A stretch of DNA of 62,033 bases, from positions 1 to 62,033 of the IMG/VR virus record IMGVR_UViG_3300025133_000103; one strand, 5' to 3'. The position numbers and the translations under genes are program-made. Under the pieces are notes generated by a model, which did not search any database, was not told the DNA's origin, and saw only the letters and a program-made list of their open reading frames with translations. This DNA comes from a virus (Duplodnaviria > Caudoviricetes). Positions 4,832 to 61,376 of this stretch are shown piece by piece (the first letter of the stretch is position 1; the number at the start of each line of letters is the position of its first letter).

Positions 4832-7279
4832 ATGACTGACTACAACAACAACAAAAAAGGCACTTTTCCAGACCCATTAGCGGAAACAGAAGTTAAGGAG
4901 AGCAAAGCCTATGGGTTGGAGTATGCTAAAGCTGTTGAATCTCAGTGGGGTAAGATGAACGAGTCGAGCTCTCTTTACGGTAAAAGAAATAACGTATTTG
5001 AGAGAAGCAGGGATTATGCTAACGGCACCCAGGATACAAACATATACAAGAAGCTTCTTAGTTCTTTAGAGCCCAATTCGGGCGATGGTAGTTTATTGAA
5101 CATGGATTACACTCCTGTTCCCATCTTACCTAAGTTTGTTCGTGTTGTCGTAAATAAAATCCTTTCTAGAAATCCATACCCTAACCTAGAGGCTATTGAT
5201 CCGTTGTCTTCTTCAGAGAAGAACAATAAAAAGCGCAGGGTTGAGATTCAAGTGGAAGCAAAAAAGCAATTACAACAGCTTAAACAACAAACAGGTATGG
5301 TTGTCGGGGATGACCCTGACACACTTCCAGATACCTTAGAGGAGGCGGAGATTCTTCTTGGCACTAATGTTAAGACCGATGCAGAGATAGCCGCGCAGAT
5401 AGGGACAAATATGACGCTCTCTTGGAATAACTTCAATGACGGGGTTTTTAGAAGGTGTGTAAACGATCTGGTTGCTTTAGGGATGTCTGTTGTTAAGAGG
5501 AGTAACGACCCCAACGAAGGCATAAAGACGGAATATGTCGATCCTGCTTGCTTCGTTCATAGCTACACAGAGGACCCTAGCTTTGAGGATCTTATCTATG
5601 CAGGGCATGTAAAGAGAATGTCTATAGCTGAGCTAAAGAGAATTGCTGGTCATGAGCTAGATGAAGAGGATTTTAAAAAGATAGCGTCGGGGGTAAAGAA
5701 TAAGTCAGGTAATGACGCTTCTGCCTTTAACAAGACCAGCTACAACAAAAACCTTCAGCGCAACGAGAACGGCTACGATCAGTATATGGTCGATATTTTA
5801 GACTTTGAGTTTCTTTCTGTCGATTGTATCCATTTCGAAGAAAAAGAAAATCGTTTTGGGAATGTAAATTTCTTCTTAAAAGGGTTTTCTTACGAAGAGA
5901 AGCAGGGTAGTGTCTTCCAGCGCACACCAAGCAAAATGGAGATATCTACTGTCTATGGCGGTAGCTACGTTATGGGTGGCGCTGATATATTGTTTAATTA
6001 CGGAAGGACGAAGAACGTACCGAAGAATATCCACGATATATCAAAGGTCACTCTCTCTTATTCTCCTATTGCGACGAACCTCCGCAATATGATGCCTAAG
6101 TCTATGGTGGACTCCTGTACGGGGTTTGCTGATATGTTGCAGCTTACGCACTTAAAGATTCAGCAGGCTATTGCCAAAGCCAAACCCGATGGACTTATTA
6201 TTGATATCGAGGGGCTGGAGAACGTACAGCTTGGAAAAGGCGGCGACTTGCAGCCATTAGAGCTTCACGATATATACGAGCAGACAGGTGTCTTCTACTA
6301 CAGGAGCAAGAACCCAGAGGGGGGCTTCCAAAACCCGCCTGTTAGGGAGATAGGAAATTCTATTCGAAATATCAACGAGCTTGTCGGGTTGTACAACCAT
6401 TACCTAAAAATGATTAGGGATGCTACGGGGGTTAACGAGATGATGGATGCCTCTACACCTAAAGGGGACACGCTTGTCGGTGTGCAGCAGAATGCTATTG
6501 CGGCAGGGAATAACGCTATATACGACATCACAAACGCTTCTATGATCTTGTTTAAAAAGGTCTGCGAGGATATAGTGAAGTGCTTGCAGATCCTACCGCC
6601 TGAGTCTGTTATCTTTAAAGTGTACGAGAACGCGGTAGGAAAAGAAAACATGTCTGTCCTCTCTTCGTTTAACGATCTACCTATGTATAACTTTGGTGTA
6701 CAGGTGGTTAAGGAGATGGAGGATCAAGATAGGGCCTACCTGGAACAGAACATACAGATGTCTCTTCAACAGAAAGAGTTGGATATAGAAGATGCTATTG
6801 CTATACGCAATATGAAAGACGTAAACCAGGCGGAACGTTTGCTTGTGGTCCGCAGAAAGAAGCGGATTGCTCAGCAGCAACAGATGGCTATGCAGAACTC
6901 TCAGCAACAAGCCGAGATACAACAAGCTTCGGCGCAGGCTACCTCGCAAGCTAAGATGCAAGAGTTGCAGATGGAGGCGCAATTGGATTCGCAGAAGATG
7001 CAATTGCAGTCTCAGTTAGAGGCTCAGCTAGAACAGGTTAAGCACCAGTTTAGAAAAGAAATTGAGATAATTAAGGCTCAGGCTACGCTAGGGTTTAAAG
7101 AGGATGATAAAAATTTCAAAGAAAAGCTTGAGGTTCTTAAAGAGGATAGAAAAGACGAGAGGGTAAAGAAGCAGTCTTCAGAACAAAGCAAGCTGTTGTC
7201 TCAACGTCAGGGCAAGCGCGGGGAGCTACCAGAAGCTTCTGAAAACGTAGACGATATTGTAAACTCATTATTAGGCTAA
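4832..7279 (+). CDS. portal protein
   Basis: 815 aa directly after TerL, with YANGTQD and PVPILPKFV motifs and a Gln-rich C-terminal coiled coil typical of P22/crAss-like portals. Confidence 0.85.
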   Translation: MTDYNNNKKGTFPDPLAETEVKESKAYGLEYAKAVESQWGKMNESSSLYGKRNNVFERSRDYANGTQDTNIYKKLLSSLEPNSGDGSLLNMDYTPVPILPKFVRVVVNKILSRNPYPNLEAIDPLSSSEKNNKKRRVEIQVEAKKQLQQLKQQTGMVVGDDPDTLPDTLEEAEILLGTNVKTDAEIAAQIGTNMTLSWNNFNDGVFRRCVNDLVALGMSVVKRSNDPNEGIKTEYVDPACFVHSYTEDPSFEDLIYAGHVKRMSIAELKRIAGHELDEEDFKKIASGVKNKSGNDASAFNKTSYNKNLQRNENGYDQYMVDILDFEFLSVDCIHFEEKENRFGNVNFFLKGFSYEEKQGSVFQRTPSKMEISTVYGGSYVMGGADILFNYGRTKNVPKNIHDISKVTLSYSPIATNLRNMMPKSMVDSCTGFADMLQLTHLKIQQAIAKAKPDGLIIDIEGLENVQLGKGGDLQPLELHDIYEQTGVFYYRSKNPEGGFQNPPVREIGNSIRNINELVGLYNHYLKMIRDATGVNEMMDASTPKGDTLVGVQQNAIAAGNNAIYDITNASMILFKKVCEDIVKCLQILPPESVIFKVYENAVGKENMSVLSSFNDLPMYNFGVQVVKEMEDQDRAYLEQNIQMSLQQKELDIEDAIAIRNMKDVNQAERLLVVRRKKRIAQQQQMAMQNSQQQAEIQQASAQATSQAKMQELQMEAQLDSQKMQLQSQLEAQLEQVKHQFRKEIEIIKAQATLGFKEDDKNFKEKLEVLKEDRKDERVKKQSSEQSKLLSQRQGKRGELPEASENVDDIVNSLLG

Positions 7280-45063: not shown

Positions 45064-47072
45064 TCATCGGACAGGGCATGCTCCTGAGTCGCAATCAGCG
45101 ATCTCTATATCGTCCATACTAAGCTGTTCTAGGCTGGTAATAGGAGTTACACTTGACTTCATGTCTAAGTAAGTGCCTTCGTCTATCTCTTCGAGAGGAG
45201 CCTGTTTAAACCCATGATCGTTATGTAAGAGAAAGGAAACAGACTTTACATTGAAGTAGTTGTTTTCTAACCACCCTTTAATGCTCTCTAGTTCTTCTTT
45301 TCGGTAATAGATAGTTACAGAGACAGCATTGTCGGACCACTCTGTCTGTAGCCTTTTACAGACCTCTAGCTGATCTATTGCCGTTAGATCCTGAGCAAAC
45401 GTGGTTCCAGAAGGGAACTTACAAGGGAAGCTGACGACGATTGTTGATTTGTCTTCTGTCCCATCAAAATTTAGCACATATTCCACAGGGTACCCATGCT
45501 CCCTGGAGGTAAGTGCCAAGCTACTATCAGCTGCCATTCGGATTCGTCTAATGTAATACTCGCTGTATCCAGGGTGTGCTCCTGGTGTAACACCAGCAAG
45601 TAGACTAAGCGTTCCAGAGGGTTTAACCGTTGTAAGTTTAATGGATGCTGGGTATCCCGCCAGTTGAGAATATTCTTTGTCATATGACCTAAGGTAGATA
45701 TAGCAATCGGTCAACCAGTTACGTTGCTCCTCGGTAGCCTGTAAGTATCCAGTAACGCCAATCCCCATACGCATATTTTTGTGTACGATGTCTTCGGTTT
45801 CCTTTACTTCGCACTTAATAGCGAGGCTGTGTTTGTTTATCCTGTAAAGGTAACGCGCAACTTTCTTTAGCTCTTCGTAGCTGTTTATGTTGGGTAGATA
45901 TATCTCGGCCAAGCAACACGTCTCATAGTTAGCTAAGGATTGCTCAGCACACGGATTAAAGCCCTGCACGTCTGGATCTGGATACTCTTCTTCTCCTGTC
46001 CGTCCCATACGACGTGAAGCGTCGAGGTTAATTAGCCCATATGGTTCACCGTTCCCGTTATACCCTTCCCAAAACTCATCGGGAAGCTGTGAAACGTCAG
46101 AACAAACTACGGAGTTGTTGGACATAGCTCTCCAATTAGGTATACCTCCTAAATCCCATCGTTTTGCTCGTAGGTACTCAACATCGTCGCAGTCTCCTAT
46201 AGCTATCTGAGCCGATCTACGGACGTTTCCTGCTACTACAATCTTTGCTATGATGTTCATTAAGTCTAAGCAGTCTATAGGTCTTAGGCGGCGACCTGAG
46301 TGCTTATTTAAAATAGCATTTACCTCGCCCATCCCCCACACTAAATCTTCTGGGCCTGAAGCTGTCCCTCCAAACCCCTTGATAGGGGATCCTTTAGATC
46401 GGATGAGGTGAGCAGCGTACGTAAAGCTTTTGCCTGTAACAAACGAAGCCTCTAGGGTCCTACGTAAAAGCTCCACCCATCCAACCCCTTGATAGGGGAT
46501 CCTTTAGATCGGATGAGGTGAGTAGCGTACGTAAAGCTCTTGCCTGTAACAAACGAAGCCTCTAGGGTCCTACGTAAAAGCTCCACCCATCCCTCACGGG
46601 TGTCTGGTACTATAAAATCCGCGTCGTTTACGTCCTTTCGAACCACATCTACTTTGCTTTTTACCTTCGGTAGTTGATATACGTTTTCGCGTTGGATATT
46701 GTAACCCACCCCGCTACCAAGCATAAGCATCTCGAAGGCCCAGGTAAAAGGGCGTATAGGATCGTCCACTACAACGAACGCGCAGTTCTGCAATGAAGGT
46801 AAGCCCAACCGATCAACGGTAGAGGTACCTAGCTGCCAAAGGAAGCGCCCTGCGACGGTTCCTTTTAGCTCCATCATAATCTTCTTTAACTCTCCTTCTT
46901 CGAATTGTGTAAACCCGCAATTAAGCTGCTCTCTACACGCATCAACCACGCGGTCAACGGTGTCTTCCCATTCTTCTGTTTTTCCGTTTTCATCTGTTCT
47001 CGAATAGGTACGCTTATAGACAGCATACCCCACCTCGCCCCAAGGGACAAGTGAAGGATCGTAAGTTTTCAT
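45064..47072 (-). CDS. nrdJ: class II (adenosylcobalamin-dependent) ribonucleotide reductase, frameshifted by a 110-bp duplication
   Basis: VYKRTYSR, AGRFLW..G, NCAF, GNVRRSA, FNPCAEQ, KPSGTLSLL and C-terminal CDSGACPVR. The two ORFs join if one duplicate copy is removed. Confidence 0.88.
46373..46592. repeat. 110-bp tandem duplication with 2 mismatches inside nrdJ
   Basis: 46373-46482 vs 46483-46592, differing at 46413/46523 and 46429/46539. Confidence 0.92.
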
Positions 47073-54277: not shown

Positions 54278-54537
54278 TTGTAAAAGTTTTTCTCGTACTG
54301 CTTAAATATATTCCTATAGCTCTGCTTCCAATTCTCCACCTCCTCATCCATCACCTTATGCTCTTTTGCCTCTATTATCATGCACTCTATCTGTGTACAG
54401 AGCATGGAGACAAGCTTTAGGTCTTTGTGTTTCTGTCCGTTCGTAAAGAACCAACGGAAGTTCCAGTCGATCCAATTAGCTATGCGCTTGAGGTGATGGG
54501 TGAGTTGGTGCATGAGGGTTGATTTAAAACTGAGCAA
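54274..54537 (-). CDS. hypothetical protein
   Basis: Contains WFFTNG motif; part of the operon. Confidence 0.55.
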   Translation of the reverse strand: MLSFKSTLMHQLTHHLKRIANWIDWNFRWFFTNGQKHKDLKLVSMLCTQIECMIIEAKEHKVMDEEVENWKQSYRNIFKQYEKNFYK

Positions 54538-56313: not shown

Positions 56314-56317
56314 TCGA

Positions 56318-56349
56318 CAAAGATAAGGGATAGTTTTCGATTTTCCAAA
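56318..56349 (-). promoter_or_regulatory. Bacteroidota sigma-A promoter TTTG-N20-TATCTTTG
   Basis: -33 and -7 elements present; near-identical copy at 58691-58722. Confidence 0.8.
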
Positions 56350-56350
56350 T

Positions 56351-56576
56351 TTAATCTGTAACTGACTGAAACTCAACGTACTTGAAGAACAGTTCGCTTG
56401 CTTCTTTCAAGTGCTTTCGCAGTTCAGGTGAGTCACCTTCCAAGGCAACGGGACACCATGAGTCAAACTTAAGCCTCTCCGCTTGATGCATAAGTTCTTC
56501 TGTTGTGTGTGCGTCAATGTAATTGATCCACTCCTGAGGCAATTCATGCCCGATATATTTTTCAAAGTTTGTCATA
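56351..56576 (-). CDS. hypothetical early protein (likely start MTNFEK, coordinate approximate)
   Basis: C-terminal part of track ORF 56351..56716, after an A-rich initiation region. Confidence 0.5.
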
Positions 56577-57745: not shown

Positions 57746-57985
57746 TTACTTCATTTTTACTCGTGAAATCACTTCGATTTCTTCAATTAATATCTTGATT
57801 TGCTCATCGTACTTGCCTTCGAAGTAGACGTGTGTCTCGCTCTGGCTATGCACCTTGGCGATCCCGTCATGGTACGAGGCTAACAAGTCATTGAATGCTT
57901 CCATTGCATCGCTTTTGTTAGCGTAGATTTCTGTTTCGCACTCGTCGAGTAACCAACTGAGTGCTTGGACTGCGTATACTTTCAT
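57746..57985 (-). CDS. hypothetical early protein
   Basis: 79-aa ORF preceded by the CAAAATCTC box. Confidence 0.6.
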   Translation of the reverse strand: MKVYAVQALSWLLDECETEIYANKSDAMEAFNDLLASYHDGIAKVHSQSETHVYFEGKYDEQIKILIEEIEVISRVKMK

Positions 57986-58014
57986 GTGTTAGAGATTTTG
58001 AATTAATAAAAAAA

Positions 58015-58108
58015 GACGATGTTTGGGTTTCTCTCCCATCGGTGCAAGCCTCGTCACCCATAGCTTACAACACAGGTAATGGTCTTCCTGGTGATTTGTA
58101 ACACCGTC
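58015..58108 (-). ncRNA. candidate structured RNA / complex terminator
   Basis: Closing stem GACGGTGTT/AACATCGTC, internal hairpins, then a T7 run. Confidence 0.45.
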
Positions 58109-58114
58109 CAATTG

Positions 58115-58244
58115 TAGCGATGGGTGGAATCGAACCACCATCAACCCTCATGTTCATTGCCATAATCCCGTGGTAACGGGTGGAAGGAACAGCTGTTGGG
58201 TTGACACATCCTCACCCTATCCTCACAGGGGACGTGTCATCGCT
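58115..58244 (-). ncRNA. tRNA-like RNA 1 (acceptor stem and T-arm with enlarged middle domains)
   Basis: AGCGATG/CATCGCT stem, GGTGG-TTCGATT-CCACC T-arm, and internal stems CACGTCC/GGATGTG and TCAACCC/GGGTTGA. Confidence 0.7.
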
Positions 58245-58251
58245 ATGTGTG

Positions 58252-58452
58252 TTAGTAGAACAGACTCAGTAGAGACTGATAGGTTTCTTCGTTACTCTCA
58301 CGGAGGAAGAAGCTGCTCGGTATCGGGTTGAGTGTTGCGCTGTGCTTGTACTCTTCGAGTGCCGCTTGAACTGCCTCCTCTTTAGAGGTAGCGTATACGC
58401 TATTCCATCCGCCCCCTTCGAAGGTGAAGATATATTGTTTCATTTCGCTCAT
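58252..58452 (-). CDS. hypothetical early protein
   Basis: 66-aa ORF with YIFTFEGGGWNSVYA...EEA motif. Confidence 0.6.
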   Translation of the reverse strand: MSEMKQYIFTFEGGGWNSVYATSKEEAVQAALEEYKHSATLNPIPSSFFLRESNEETYQSLLSLFY

Positions 58453-58655
58453 GTTTGTACGTGGTACATTCGTGCAGTTGGTAACTGCTCGGCTACTAGT
58501 CGGGTGATTTCACTTCTCAAGAAGTCATCATCTTCGGGGGTGGGATCACCATACGTCTGCTGTTGACGCTTGGCGAAGTAGTCGATCTTGGATTGGTCTT
58601 GAGTGACTACCATGTGGTAGGCAATCTTAGGTAGGTAACCGTTAGCATATTTCAT
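58449..58655 (-). CDS. hypothetical early protein (likely start MKYANG)
   Basis: Start reassigned because the promoter at 58691-58722 lies inside the longer track ORF. Confidence 0.6.
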   Translation of the reverse strand: MKYANGYLPKIAYHMVVTQDQSKIDYFAKRQQQTYGDPTPEDDDFLRSEITRLVAEQLPTARMYHVQT

Positions 58656-58690
58656 GAGAGAGAGATTTTGAGTTGGCAACATTGCCGATA

Positions 58691-58722
58691 CAAAGATAAG
58701 GCATAGTTTTCCTATTTCCAAA
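58691..58722 (-). promoter_or_regulatory. Bacteroidota sigma-A promoter TTTG-N20-TATCTTTG
   Basis: Near-identical to 56318-56349. Confidence 0.8.
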
Positions 58723-58730
58723 TTTATTTT

Positions 58731-58988
58731 CTAAGCTGCTGATTCTGAAGGGATTACCACTCCATCCACTTGGTCTGAGTAGCACCAGTGTCCGTTGTCT
58801 AGTGTGAGTACGTAGTTGTCACCCATGCTCACCTCATCTACCTCCGCCCCGTACTTCTCGCGGTAGTGCTTCGTCTGCTCGATGGCAATTACGCCTGCTA
58901 CGCTCTGAGAGTCCCGACCGAAGCCTCCTCTGTGTAACACCTGCGATCCTACGCGGATTACTCGTGTGTTGGTGAATTTCGTTTTCAT
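58731..58988 (-). CDS. hypothetical early protein
   Basis: 85-aa ORF with LDNGHWCY..Q motif. Confidence 0.6.
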   Translation of the reverse strand: MKTKFTNTRVIRVGSQVLHRGGFGRDSQSVAGVIAIEQTKHYREKYGAEVDEVSMGDNYVLTLDNGHWCYSDQVDGVVIPSESAA

Positions 58989-58989
58989 T

Positions 58990-59184
58990 TTACTTATTTT
59001 GAATGTTTTCGACTAGTTTACGCGCCGTCATCTTAGCGTATGTCTCGCCTTGTGTCATCGTCCCTGCCCTCTGTGGAGCAGGTAGGTTTTCAATGGTTAG
59101 CCCATCGCGGGAGTACCTACTAGCACCCATCATGATGCTCCGTGTAACTCGCTTTATGTGGGCTTCTTTCTGTTCGTGTGTCAT
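58990..59184 (-). CDS. hypothetical early protein
   Basis: 64-aa ORF in tandem array. Confidence 0.55.
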   Translation of the reverse strand: MTHEQKEAHIKRVTRSIMMGASRYSRDGLTIENLPAPQRAGTMTQGETYAKMTARKLVENIQNK

Positions 59185-59331
59185 TTAGCTTAGGGCTTGG
59201 GGGTTTAAGATTGTGCATGCAGCAAAGGCAGTACCAACTAGTTGGCATCCTTTGTAGTCGCGGATGTCATGGAAGTACTCATAGGCATCTATGATTTCTT
59301 CTATTGTGCAGTCGAGAAAAGGGTTTAACAT
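59185..59331 (-). CDS. small 48-aa early protein, missing from the ORF track
   Basis: MLNPFLDCTIEEIIDAYEYFHDIRDYKGCQLVGTAFAACTILNPQALS*, with the CAAAATCTC box upstream. Confidence 0.55.
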   Translation of the reverse strand: MLNPFLDCTIEEIIDAYEYFHDIRDYKGCQLVGTAFAACTILNPQALS

Positions 59332-59353
59332 CGTTTTGAGATTTTGAAAATTA

Positions 59354-59444
59354 GAGCCATAGACAGGATTCGAACCTGCTCCTCCATCGTAGATGTGTAC
59401 TACATCCTTAACGCGGGTGTGCTATCCAGTTACACTATACGGCT
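59354..59444 (-). ncRNA. tRNA-like RNA 2 (canonical D- and T-arms, aberrant extended anticodon arm)
   Basis: AGCCGTA-TA-GTGT-AACTGGATA-GCAC ... GCAGG-TTCGAAT-CCTGT-C-TATGGCT. Confidence 0.7.
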
Positions 59445-59499
59445 TGCGGGCTATGCCCCTCATGAGTAGCTTGCTCACGACACATCGTTTTTGATATTA

Positions 59500-59552
59500 G
59501 AGCGGTTCAGGGAGTCGAACCCTGCTATGGTAGCCCCCATCAGGCAACCGCT
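59500..59552 (-). ncRNA. tRNA-like RNA 3 (minimal acceptor + T-arm minihelix)
   Basis: AGCGGTT-GCCTG-ATGG-GGGCTA-CCAT-AG-CAGGG-TTCGACT-CCCTG-AACCGCT. Confidence 0.7.
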
Positions 59553-59631
59553 TGTAAAGGACACCTTGGGGCGGTCTTTTCTAAAGCCCCATTAAGCAGG
59601 GTGTTCCTGCATAGGTGTCACAGTCACACTC

Positions 59632-59790
59632 TTACAGAGTGTTCACTAGGTCTTCGAGCGTCATCTGCTCGTCGTTGGTGAGTGTGTCCCATTCGTGGGT
59701 GGCACGGACAGCATCGAAACCTATGGTTTGAATGTCGAGTTGTACGTCGTAGTACAGGCTATTTACAGCCGCTTGCTTGCATGATTGCAT
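59632..59790 (-). CDS. small 52-aa early protein, missing from the ORF track
   Basis: MQSCKQAAVNSLYYDVQLDIQTIGFDAVRATHEWDTLTNDEQMTLEDLVNTL*, with the CTAAATCTC box upstream. Confidence 0.55.
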   Translation of the reverse strand: MQSCKQAAVNSLYYDVQLDIQTIGFDAVRATHEWDTLTNDEQMTLEDLVNTL

Positions 59791-59835
59791 GACAGAGAGA
59801 TTTAGAATGCGATAGCTGAATTGCCATCGGCTTGG

Positions 59836-59867
59836 TAAAGGTACGGCATTGGTTCCGAAAAACCAAA
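59836..59867 (-). promoter_or_regulatory. promoter TTTG-N20-TACCTTTA
   Basis: Same 20-nt spacing as the two other early promoters. Confidence 0.7.
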
Positions 59868-59895
59868 TCTGATTTGTAACCCCTAAAGGGGTTGT

Positions 59896-60384
59896 TTAGA
59901 ATACTTCAGGGGCTCCGCTCATCAGCGCCTCCGCTTCAAGTGCGCACCGCTCCTGCTCAGCGAGTATACGCTGGCGGCGGATAGCTTCCTGAGGGGTTTC
60001 ACCGTCGAGAAGTGTAAACACTTCCTTCACAGCCGCTCGCTTGGCAGGTGAGGGAGTGACGACGACAGCCTTACGCGGCTCGAACGGTTGAGCATCACCT
60101 TCGGTGATGGCGTGAACAACTTTCGTCTTCGCAGGGGTGCCGATGCCTACACCGCCCCGTGCTTGTGCCTGCTCCAAGCCTGCATTCGAGCCCCGCTTGG
60201 GCTTCCGAATGGTCTTGGCTTTAAGCTTCGCTTTCGAAGCCTTCGGCTTACGCTTGGGCTTAGAAGCCTTCGGCTTCGCGGCCTGCTCTGCTGCATACTT
60301 CGCCTTGTTGGCGATTCGGCGCTCTGCCTTCGTGTACTTGCGGCCCGTCTCTGGGCAGTGTGTGGGAGTGTATGTGCTCATCAC
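59896..60384 (-). CDS. Lys/Arg-rich basic protein, first gene of the early block
   Basis: CPETGRKYTKAERRIANKAKY followed by KPKASK repeats, with its own promoter and leader at 60386-60430. Confidence 0.7.
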   Translation of the reverse strand: MMSTYTPTHCPETGRKYTKAERRIANKAKYAAEQAAKPKASKPKRKPKASKAKLKAKTIRKPKRGSNAGLEQAQARGGVGIGTPAKTKVVHAITEGDAQPFEPRKAVVVTPSPAKRAAVKEVFTLLDGETPQEAIRRQRILAEQERCALEAEALMSGAPEVF

Positions 60385-60538
60385 TAGAGATTTAGATAGT
60401 CAGCTGCGTTGCCAACTTTGGTAAAGGTACAAAAAACTTCTCCATATTTCGACAACAAAATTGAATCCCATTTGTAACTGGCTAACAACCAACGAGATAC
60501 AACCCTTGTTTATATTCATTCTAAATAAGGAAAGTCTT

Positions 60539-60736
60539 TACGCATGTGCGTGTATGTGTGTACATGTGCGCGTGTACGTGATCGCATGCCAGCACAGGCG
60601 CGGGTACATGTGCGGGTGTGTGCGTATGCCCGCCCAGATGCGTGTGTGCACAAGCGAGCGAGCGCGAGCATGTGTGCGTATGTGCGGGGATGCACGAGTA
60701 TGTGTGCGCTAGGTGTATGCGTACCCGTACGTGAGG
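60539..60736. repeat. alternating purine-pyrimidine low-complexity tract
   Basis: 60539-60580 is a perfect 42-nt YR alternation, and further imperfect runs follow. Confidence 0.85.
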
Positions 60737-61376
60737 TGTGGGCTTGACGTAGTAGGAGAGCCAAGGGACTGTCCTTACCTCAGTCTCAGCTAGTTACCTC
60801 TCAGCGTTTACACTGTCGATAGAATCAACGGTGGCTAAATCACTAATACTCAAAGGGTTAAGGCGGATTGAATAAAGCTGAAATCTATGCGCGAATCGTG
60901 CGCGTATTGCACCCACGGGGGTTCACGGATGCGTTTCGGTTGCGTGCGTGAGGCGTGTATACATCTATATTATCCCCGATCTCTGTATTGCTGACGTTTT
61001 TTTAAGGTTTCTAGCGGGCTTGATTTTTCAAAAACCAGCAAAACATCGTTTAGAAGGCTGTCTATTAAGTCTTTGCGGGTTACAATTTTTTTTCCACAGC
61101 CACTTGACTTTGTAGATTTTCTGTTGTACCTTGCCCAAGCAAATCGGGAGCGCAACTAAAGAACACAAAAGCACATAAGCATTTTTCTTACGTAAACGTA
61201 GAGAACAAAAAAGCTTATTGGTTGTGAGGGGCCGAGGACTACACTTATAGGAAGTAGCATAGTAAGCAGGGCGAGAGAGAACAGCATATCGAGTATATAG
61301 AGGCCCTGCGTGTTACTTCTTTGCATCCAGTCGGCTAAGATCTGTTTTATTACCTTTGTAATTAAGTACAGCCTAT

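Follow-up and report, generated by a model that had tools for sequence, protein, structure and literature searches.

In bacteriophage T4, small stable RNAs framed like tRNAs have been known since the 1970s, according to the part of PMC3014915 that deals with them. Two T4 RNAs, rnaC (species 1, 139 nt) and rnaD (species 2, 119 nt), are encoded in the phage tRNA cluster. They are classed as late in the corresponding part of PMC9697503, and the statements on them in these parts of both sources (PMC3014915 and PMC9697503) give their function as not known. Rfam holds no family for either RNA. Inspection of the rnaC sequence revealed a canonical T arm followed by a 3' strand that pairs with the 5' end, with two U.U mismatches, around a non-tRNA interior of about 100 nt (fold z = -4.57). 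Analysis of a 62,033-bp stretch of viral DNA (Duplodnaviria; Caudoviricetes), here called the window, revealed three elements on the minus strand, el1 (58115 to 58244), el2 (59354 to 59444), and el3 (59500 to 59552), which appear from sequence to belong to the same kind as rnaC and rnaD. The window is the whole of IMG/VR virus record IMGVR_UViG_3300025133_000103, which is rated complete. This kind of RNA would be represented here by several families in an abundant marine group of Bacteroidota phages.

Like rnaC, the window elements have a canonical T arm beside an end helix and a non-tRNA interior, and they are likewise encoded among phage tRNA genes, since the homolog of el2 is a true tRNA standing in arrays with two of the families described below (C and D). 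In contrast to the T4 RNAs, they lie among small early-type open reading frames (ORFs), occur in several families with mini forms and exchange of interiors, and belong to a different phage lineage and host; no sequence similarity to the T4 RNAs was seen.

Other tRNA-framed RNAs offer looser comparisons. The RNAs mascRNA and menRNA (RF01684) are small and tRNA-like, have no working anticodon, and are excised by tRNA-processing enzymes. They form a vertebrate nuclear family, and el3 resembles them in shape only, below threshold (end-to-end alignment with the RF01684 model at 24.1 bits versus a cut-off of 42.5 bits; E = 0.13). In the tRNA-miRNA units of murine gammaherpesvirus 68 and in the laboratory "tRNA scaffold," host enzymes excise and stabilize a passenger RNA; unlike the window elements, these systems are eukaryotic or synthetic, and their passenger either follows the tRNA or is placed within the anticodon arm of a complete cloverleaf. 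The plant mitochondrial t-elements, as described in part of PMC1920247, are non-canonical tRNA-like structures with a GGTTCRANYCC T-arm motif beside mRNA ends; RNase P and RNase Z cleave them, and the stable RNAs so released include some with C or CCA added. They differ from the window elements in being organellar and mostly cloverleaf-like relics, with neither conserved foreign interiors nor arrays.

The tRNA-like domain of transfer-messenger RNA (tmRNA) consists of an acceptor and a T arm, with other RNA replacing the anticodon arm. ARAGORN made no tmRNA call in the window, and a tmRNA identity of the elements was rejected for lack of such a call, of a G3.U70 pair (pair 3-70 is C-G), and of a tag frame; in Rfam, only the 17-nt T arm of el1 matched a tmRNA model (12.7 bits). 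Identity with YrlA or another bacterial Y RNA was rejected as well: there was no Rfam match and no TROVE domain in the genome, and both RNA ends lie at the acceptor. In the related crAss-like Cellulophaga phage phi14:2 (NC_021806), ARAGORN called a tmRNA with the tag GSSVQKLAMVA in the g004-g006 intergenic region (locus L452, 4031 to 4500; L numbers denote the loci used in this analysis). According to part of 10.1101/2020.03.07.982082, two long early intergenic regions of phi14:2, g004-g006 among them, are transcribed above most genes and persist through infection. Thus, tRNA-like RNAs may be major early products in crAss-like phages, which says nothing direct about the window.

Three elements with a tRNA acceptor/T-arm frame

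In each of the three elements, a 7-bp acceptor helix adjoins a canonical T arm (5 bp, UUCGAnU loop), and no usable anticodon arm is present. The window was searched with a scanner for a 7-bp acceptor, a 5-bp T stem, a TTCRANY loop, and a T stem abutting the acceptor 3' strand. Exactly four matches were found, namely, tRNA-Arg (2396 to 2468), el1, el2, and el3, the last three with the positions and acceptor/T structures that a first-pass annotation had given them. The same four sites hold all four exact occurrences of GGTTCGANTCC in the window. In 300 dinucleotide-preserving shuffles, the mean number of matches was 0.09; at least one match occurred in 26 shuffles and three or more in none, which argues against a chance origin of the four matches.

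The anticodon side of the elements deviates from that of tRNA. A 7-bp helix stacked on a 5-bp T stem with a UUCRANY loop was found in all three elements (in el2 with one mismatch or bulge), and an anticodon arm with a 5-bp stem and a 7-nt loop was found in none. The earlier claim that a valid anticodon loop is lacking was thus confirmed: el1 has two long arms and el3 one short hairpin, both without a D arm, and el2 has 30 nt where the model has 13 positions. The AGC...GCT ends, which had been assigned to the whole group, are shared by el1 and el3 only, because the AGC/GCT register of el2 requires a bulged C between T stem and acceptor. The absence of an encoded CCA, also claimed for the group, is true of the elements and is not distinctive, because the true tRNAs of the phage, tRNA-Arg and tRNA-Asp, share it.

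Two of the gene finders named in the first-pass annotation, ARAGORN and Rfam, were applied to the elements. ARAGORN did not call el1 and el3 and called el2 weakly as tRNA-Leu(aag). With Rfam model RF00005 (cut-off, 29 bits), el2 scored 24.1 bits and el1 and el3 gave no tRNA match at E <= 10; the true tRNAs of the window scored 68.2 and 49.8 bits. When introns were allowed, ARAGORN called 2 of 15 element sequences, which were el2 and a true tRNA-Arg. Standard finders of tRNAs and RNA families miss such genes, and phage annotations therefore probably omit many of them.

Conservation and covariation of el1

The 130-nt el1 belongs to a family designated A2. Read on the minus strand, it comprises the acceptor 5' strand (58238 to 58244), arm I with an invariant GAGG loop (58207 to 58237), arm II (58140 to 58204), the T arm (58123 to 58139), the acceptor 3' strand (58116 to 58122), and a discriminator A (58115). 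The acceptor starts with A1-U72, G2-C71, and C3-G70, and the predicted fold has a z score of -4.16 relative to shuffles.

Eight distinct A2 sequences from 20 places were obtained by BLAST, with a pattern for the core of the interior, which is conserved, and from a metagenome scan that used a neighboring element as its anchor. The structure tested on their alignment has four helices, i.e., the 7-bp acceptor, a 13-pair arm I with a GAGG cap, a long arm II, and the T arm. Pairing was found in 92.2% of 384 cells, compared to 39 to 47% with slid partners. Changes on both sides occurred in 15 of 48 pairs (8.1 +/- 1.6 in shuffles; 0 of 500 shuffles reached 15), and in the acceptor, three of seven pairs showed compensatory changes. 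The interior-core pattern had fixed part of arm II for two of the sequences; therefore, only the covariation in the acceptor, in arm I, and at the base of arm II is counted. No variation was seen in the T stem, in the GAGG and UACC loops, or in portions of arm II. Among the homologs, compensatory changes uphold both the frame and the interior helices of el1. The extent of pairing and the 15 compensatory pairs indicate that el1 is a maintained structured RNA and not a relic. It is read as a full member of the group with an interior that is itself under structural selection, so that the RNA, once cut out, would probably serve a function of its own.

The first base of el1 lies 7 nt past the stop codon of a 66-amino-acid (aa) ORF (58252 to 58452, minus strand), behind a conserved CACACAU leader, and this arrangement leaves no room for a promoter of its own. 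Elsewhere in the window, the longest stretch perfectly complementary to el1 has 13 nt (54511 to 54523). This candidate antisense target was judged to be due to chance because about 0.2 such complements are expected and the el1 stretch concerned is paired and not conserved. The 24-nt 3' half of el1 had no exact match in 185,579 species genomes.

el2 and el3 as derived forms

Comparison with related phages indicates that el2 is a remodeled tRNA gene in which only the frame is kept and that el3 is a reduced form of another element. In relatives, the homolog of el2 is a 73- to 74-nt tRNA gene (35.6 bits in Rfam; e.g., L441, 809 to 881, and L443, 9785 to 9858) that is preceded by the same spacer as el2. 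This tRNA has an 8-nt anticodon loop and was read by ARAGORN as tRNA-Ala(tgc) in four of five loci and with a four-base anticodon, GCAA, in one of five. Its amino acid identity is unclear because there is no G3.U70 pair and the discriminator is A. el2 retains the acceptor, D arm, and T arm, as well as the outermost two pairs of the anticodon stem, and none of the retained helices is broken relative to the homolog. A unique 30-nt replacement within the anticodon hairpin (59386 to 59415, minus strand) stands for 13 model positions, lengthens the helix, and ends in a 5-nt apical loop. In the standard register, G1 is at 59443, pair 7-66 is a U.C mismatch, and the discriminator is U. A second copy of the 30-nt insert was found nowhere, and its origin as a mobile hairpin was rejected on these grounds.

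With only 53 nt, el3 is a mini form made of the acceptor, one short hairpin, and the T arm. Aligned with the 81-nt family B, from which it is derived, el3 has 29 nt deleted and is without the apical palindrome hairpin of that family. Acceptor pair 6 is changed from C-G to U-A, so that pairing is retained. Neither el2 nor el3 folds better than shuffled sequences (z = -0.94 and -1.34, respectively). The el3 frame has two exact matches in the 185,579 species genomes, one in a Gemmataceae tRNA array and one in an Akkermansia contig, neither of which belongs to Bacteroidota. In the metagenome-assembled genome of the Gemmataceae match (L453), a dense array of 20 tRNA genes in 3 kb includes an uncalled tRNA-like element (5440 to 5545) whose T arm and acceptor 3' strand follow the pattern of family B.

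Element families, arrays, and exchange in related phages

To place the elements among their relatives, 160 loci from related IMG/VR contigs, anchored on the terminase and a RecE-type exonuclease, were searched with the same scanner, and tRNAs called by ARAGORN were subtracted. Several element families were found on the early-gene strand. These include A1 (161 to 163 nt), A2 (about 130 nt), B (81 nt), C (72 nt, with a 48-nt short form in L036, L429, L433, L435, and L438), D (81 nt), and others. In every scanner-listed member of these five families the T stem abuts the acceptor strand, giving a 7+5 ruler. In an alignment of A1 with A2, sequence is shared only at the termini, over 9 nt (5') and 25 nt (3'), in agreement with the initial description of a family with a constant acceptor/T half and an exchangeable middle. 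A 25-codon frame after the A1 acceptor was rejected as coding because a 1-nt indel shifts it in relatives and the base changes are of the kind that preserves pairing in RNA helices. Members of family B have a 6-nt palindrome as their apical loop; its sequence differs between variants (GTGCAC, TCGCGA, and CTGCAG; L357, 631 to 712; L404, 117 to 198; L403, 9250 to 9331) and is always palindromic, which points to pairing between the loops of two copies or to a site that acts as DNA.

In related marine phage contigs, the modules make up variable arrays at one syntenic site, beginning a few bases past an ORF stop codon and lying upstream of down1. A metagenome scan anchored on down1, the non-coding module directly following el1, yielded 42 loci; together with the earlier loci, 41 distinct contexts were obtained. 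A recognized module lies upstream of down1 in 31 of the 37 distinct contexts with 200 nt of upstream sequence, the types being A2, C, C plus A2, tRNA, D, and module X, and 6 of the 37 have no module there. Arrays contain two to five modules without an ORF between them, and the tRNA homologous to el2 stands in arrays with families C and D. Module X, a conserved non-coding sequence of about 75 nt (GGTACYCACC...GGTAGGTGRGC...; e.g., L130, 5072 to 5145, and L116, 4524 to 4600), is present in many loci, in many relatives between a tRNA-like element and down1.

Contigs assembled from four public DNA runs revealed joins within the population of the window phage, with the same frame across different interiors. 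One of these joins 58136 to 58242, across the interior of el1, and occurs in one of the four runs. From such joins and from the sequence shared by A1 and A2, it follows that recombination at the conserved frame accounts for the exchange, gain, and loss of modules. Among 1,426 distinct ARAGORN tRNAs in the collected loci, 24 have AGC...GCT ends, 10 of which are tRNA(CAU), and one of the 24 has the exact acceptor of el1. This is only a hint that the frame may derive from tRNA(CAU), because the set of loci was biased by search patterns ending in GCT. When IMG/VR was scanned with the 3' ends of the elements, the matches listed were mostly ordinary tRNAs of unrelated phages.

Further tRNA-like genes were seen in the collected loci. 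An element with an acceptor starting AGTCAGG (AGTGCAG in L448) is very common in unrelated IMG/VR phages (L195, L218, L261, L353, L363, L371, L377, L387, and L448, 523 to 629) and occurs in GenBank entry MW202828. It is not called by ARAGORN and combines a tRNA-Leu-type D arm and a normal T arm with 50 to 130 nt where the anticodon and variable region would be. Likewise uncalled is a tRNA-like element of 76 nt that stands beside tRNA-Arg and has TATCTCCTCAAGCTTATACCTTGTAGAAAGAGTAA as its conserved interior (L048, 7498 to 7573; L077, 5931 to 6006; L173, 4020 to 4095; L359, 9890 to 9965; L390, 6436 to 6511), and its acceptor stems covary between contigs. Relatives whose TerL identity is 75% (L075, 1216 to 1286, and L076, 8603 to 8673) encode a tRNA with the anticodon TTA, which reads the stop codon TAA. 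It has an A1-U72 acceptor and an encoded CCA and is part of a small tRNA cluster upstream of the terminase gene.

Proposed excision by host enzymes and alternative explanations

The 12-bp stack of acceptor and T arm, together with the T loop, is the part of a tRNA that is recognized and measured by RNase P, RNase Z, and the CCA-adding enzyme. The reading toward which the analysis leans, by a small step, is that the elements are tRNA-framed small RNAs that are excised and stabilized by host enzymes while the operon transcript is cut. A freely designed interior would replace the D and anticodon arms within the frame formed by the stack and the T loop. The elements and the small ORFs would share transcripts of the leftward operons, which are presumably early. 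Cleavage by host RNase P would set the first base of the element, RNase Z would cleave past the discriminator, and CCA addition would follow. A compact, stable RNA would be released, and the polycistronic transcript would be severed a few bases past the upstream stop codon. This reading is based on the retention of the 12-bp stack and T loop in every member and on published precedents. In the relevant part of PMC11143913, RNase P is described as cleaving several non-tRNA phage RNAs, and in that of PMC4919913 it is described as a molecular ruler. The genome gave no match for TROVE (Ro), the head domain of CCA enzymes, RtcB, reverse transcriptase, or integrase (PF00589), and the absence of these functions was counted in favor of host enzymes. 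The role as a processing signal proposed at first pass is supported as far as position is concerned, as the elements lie inside leftward small-ORF operons and el1 closely follows a stop codon. The existence of mini and remodeled forms indicates that the frame alone is also kept.

Several observations weigh against excision of functional RNAs by host enzymes. Tandem arrays without intervening ORFs exceed the needs of transcript punctuation, el2 and el3 were seen in this lineage only, and no partner or target of the conserved el1 interior was identified. In A2, U.U mismatches occur at acceptor pair 6 in five of the eight sequences and at pair 5 in three of eight. The frame of family B is invariant partly by construction, and this invariance says little because the pattern used to retrieve part of the set fixed the stems. 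In addition, the elements are dispensable, as shown by three cases. Contigs in three of the four runs join 58116 to 58447, with el1 and its ORF removed or replaced, so that ORF 58252-58452 and el1 behave as one replaceable cassette. A join of 59349 to 59496 in two of the four runs removes el2 and the spacer between two copies of an 8-nt repeat. In L440, one of the six contexts without a recognized module, down1 directly follows an ORF, with no tRNA-like module.

Two of the alternatives are unlikely to a similar degree. The first, that the elements are decaying tRNA genes, functionless relics of a tRNA cluster whose top halves survived only because the damage is recent, draws on el2 as a tRNA homolog with a unique replacement and on el3 as a deletion derivative. 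Both are derived states confined to one lineage, el2 is missing from population contigs, and neither folds better than shuffles. For these two elements, the tRNA-pseudogene explanation that the first-pass annotation had named as its own refutation is therefore still partly alive. It is excluded for el1, with its 15 compensatory pairs, interior included. Decay is also at odds with mini forms that recur and diversify elsewhere, such as the 48-nt form of family C, with the el3 acceptor that changed on both sides and still pairs, and with the retained helices of el2, none of which is broken in comparison with its tRNA homolog. Pure transcript punctuation in the manner of the t-elements, where the cuts matter and the excised RNA is waste, would agree with the start of el1 just past a stop codon, with mini forms that persist with almost no interior, with the free exchange of interiors, and with the plant mitochondrial precedent (part of PMC1920247). 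It does not account for the conserved and covarying helices and loops of the el1 interior, for arrays of modules with no ORF between them, or for the apical palindrome of family B, which is maintained through sequence changes.

A function as a decoy or sponge for host factors at the acceptor/CCA end or the T arm appears less probable still. Toxins and defense enzymes that modify or cut tRNA 3' ends exist, and placement among small early-type ORFs, tandem modules as a means of dosage, and conservation of the tRNA half that such enzymes see are circumstantial points in favor. Anticodon nucleases, which had been suggested as the target, are unlikely to be decoyed, since the anticodon loop is absent. 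Moreover, the frames copy no known Bacteroidota tRNA 3' half among the 185,579 species genomes (no match for el1 and two unrelated matches for the el3 frame), and close relatives dispense with the elements. A role at the DNA level, as att sites for integration into tRNA genes or as recombination linkers, is very improbable. Recombination does occur at shared 3' ends, and an 8-nt repeat marks the 59349/59496 joint, but both acceptor strands are present with compensatory changes that preserve RNA pairing, a PF00589 tyrosine integrase match is absent from the genome, and the 3' half of el1 is in no bacterial tRNA of the species genomes. Hardly any weight is given to working tRNAs with introns or unusual decoding loops. 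The call of el2 as tRNA-Leu(aag) and the 8-nt anticodon loop already present in its homolog would fit this explanation, whereas the intron option of ARAGORN gave no call beyond el2 and a true tRNA-Arg, el1 and el3 have neither a D arm nor a 7-nt loop on a 5-bp stem, and an RtcB-type ligase was not found in the genome. Parts of a retron or a diversity-generating retroelement were rejected, as no reverse transcriptase was found in the genome.

An extension of the host-excision reading, put forward tentatively and probably too far-reaching, is a natural "tRNA-chassis" cassette system. The frame would let host tRNA enzymes excise and cap any inserted RNA, and recombination would swap the interiors, giving a fast-evolving repertoire of small RNAs, some of them possibly pairing through palindromic loops. 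Such RNAs might act as regulators at the start of infection or as tRNA-end decoys, and T4 rnaC and rnaD would be single examples of the system. The natural variation seen here is sufficient to tell selected features from free ones: selection acts on the 12-bp frame, on the T loop, and on part of the interior helices, whereas the choice of interior and the number of copies are free. It turns the T4 puzzle into testable predictions, namely, cleavage sites, CCA addition, and exchangeable interiors.

Phage genome and flanking modules

The plus strand of the window encodes the large terminase, the portal, virion proteins, and a 3,149-aa ORF; replication genes and many small ORFs occupy the minus strand between about 60.4 and 45 kb. 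A Pfam scan revealed a type IX secretion system (T9SS) sorting domain and a crassvirus muzzle domain. Together with TTTG...TAnnTTTG promoter-like sites (pattern matches) and a TerL 40 to 46% identical to those of Flavobacterium and Cellulophaga phages, these domains point to a Bacteroidota host and to kinship with crAss-like phages and Flavobacteriia podophages. Among the 20 ORFs submitted to Pfam, a subset of all ORFs, none has a tRNA-related domain. DNA of the window phage occurs in marine metagenome runs from 19 studies; no RNA run was among those listed for 57900 to 59900. A blastn search of 57900 to 59700 against 50,697 phage records gave no match, and no culturable carrier of the element families was found among the cultured or deposited relatives checked. 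Flavobacterium phage elemoA (TerL 40% identical) has no such tRNA-framed element, and MW202828 (TerL 46% identical) has one unrelated 107-nt tRNA-Leu-framed element. A description of these RNA families was not found in the literature searched, which does not rule out one elsewhere.

Directly after el1, the 125-nt module down1 (57990 to 58114, minus strand) is 86 to 92% identical in relatives whose proteins are about 75% identical. Its predicted fold is closed by a 10-bp stem that encloses three hairpins; a terminator-like U tract and the A-rich leader of the next ORF follow. The consensus fold of 14 sequences has 32 pairs, 2 of which are compensatory, and no Rfam match was found. down1 may be a small RNA whose 5' end is produced by the cleavage after el1. 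The spacer between el3 and el2 (59445 to 59499, minus strand) forms two small hairpins (z = -2.14) and is 93 to 95% identical over 40 to 46 nt in seven other loci (BLAST). Directly upstream of el3, a 79-nt leader (59553 to 59631, minus strand) folds into a 7-bp closing stem around two hairpins (z = -3.63); BLAST revealed no homolog of it outside near-identical contigs.

A consensus match to a Bacteroidota-type promoter (TTTG ... TAnnTTTG) at 58691 to 58722 on the minus strand would drive a unit made of ORF 58449-58655, ORF 58252-58452, el1, and down1. The site is duplicated ahead of tRNA-Asp at 56318 to 56349, within a 45-nt repeat (56317 to 56361 and 58690 to 58734, minus strand; 84% identical) that holds the promoter consensus. 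One copy ends 5 nt before tRNA-Asp, so this tRNA may begin almost at the transcription start. ORF 59632-59790, whose unit carries el3 and el2, is preceded by a -7-like TACCTTTA box (59836 to 59843, minus strand), which has a twin at 60422 to 60429. Both are pattern matches and count as weak evidence because the number of matches is no higher than in shuffles.

Two further features of the window were noted. A CA-rich low-complexity stretch with degenerate ACGCACAC-like repeats (60516 to 60770) lies inside a non-coding region of about 900 nt between the divergent early and structural arms and may be an origin or a genome end. At 45064 to 47072 on the minus strand, two adjacent, overlapping ORFs of 470 and 206 aa match a single ribonucleotide reductase family; its C-terminal part is matched by the first ORF and its N-terminal part by the second, so that this reductase gene may be split or frameshifted.

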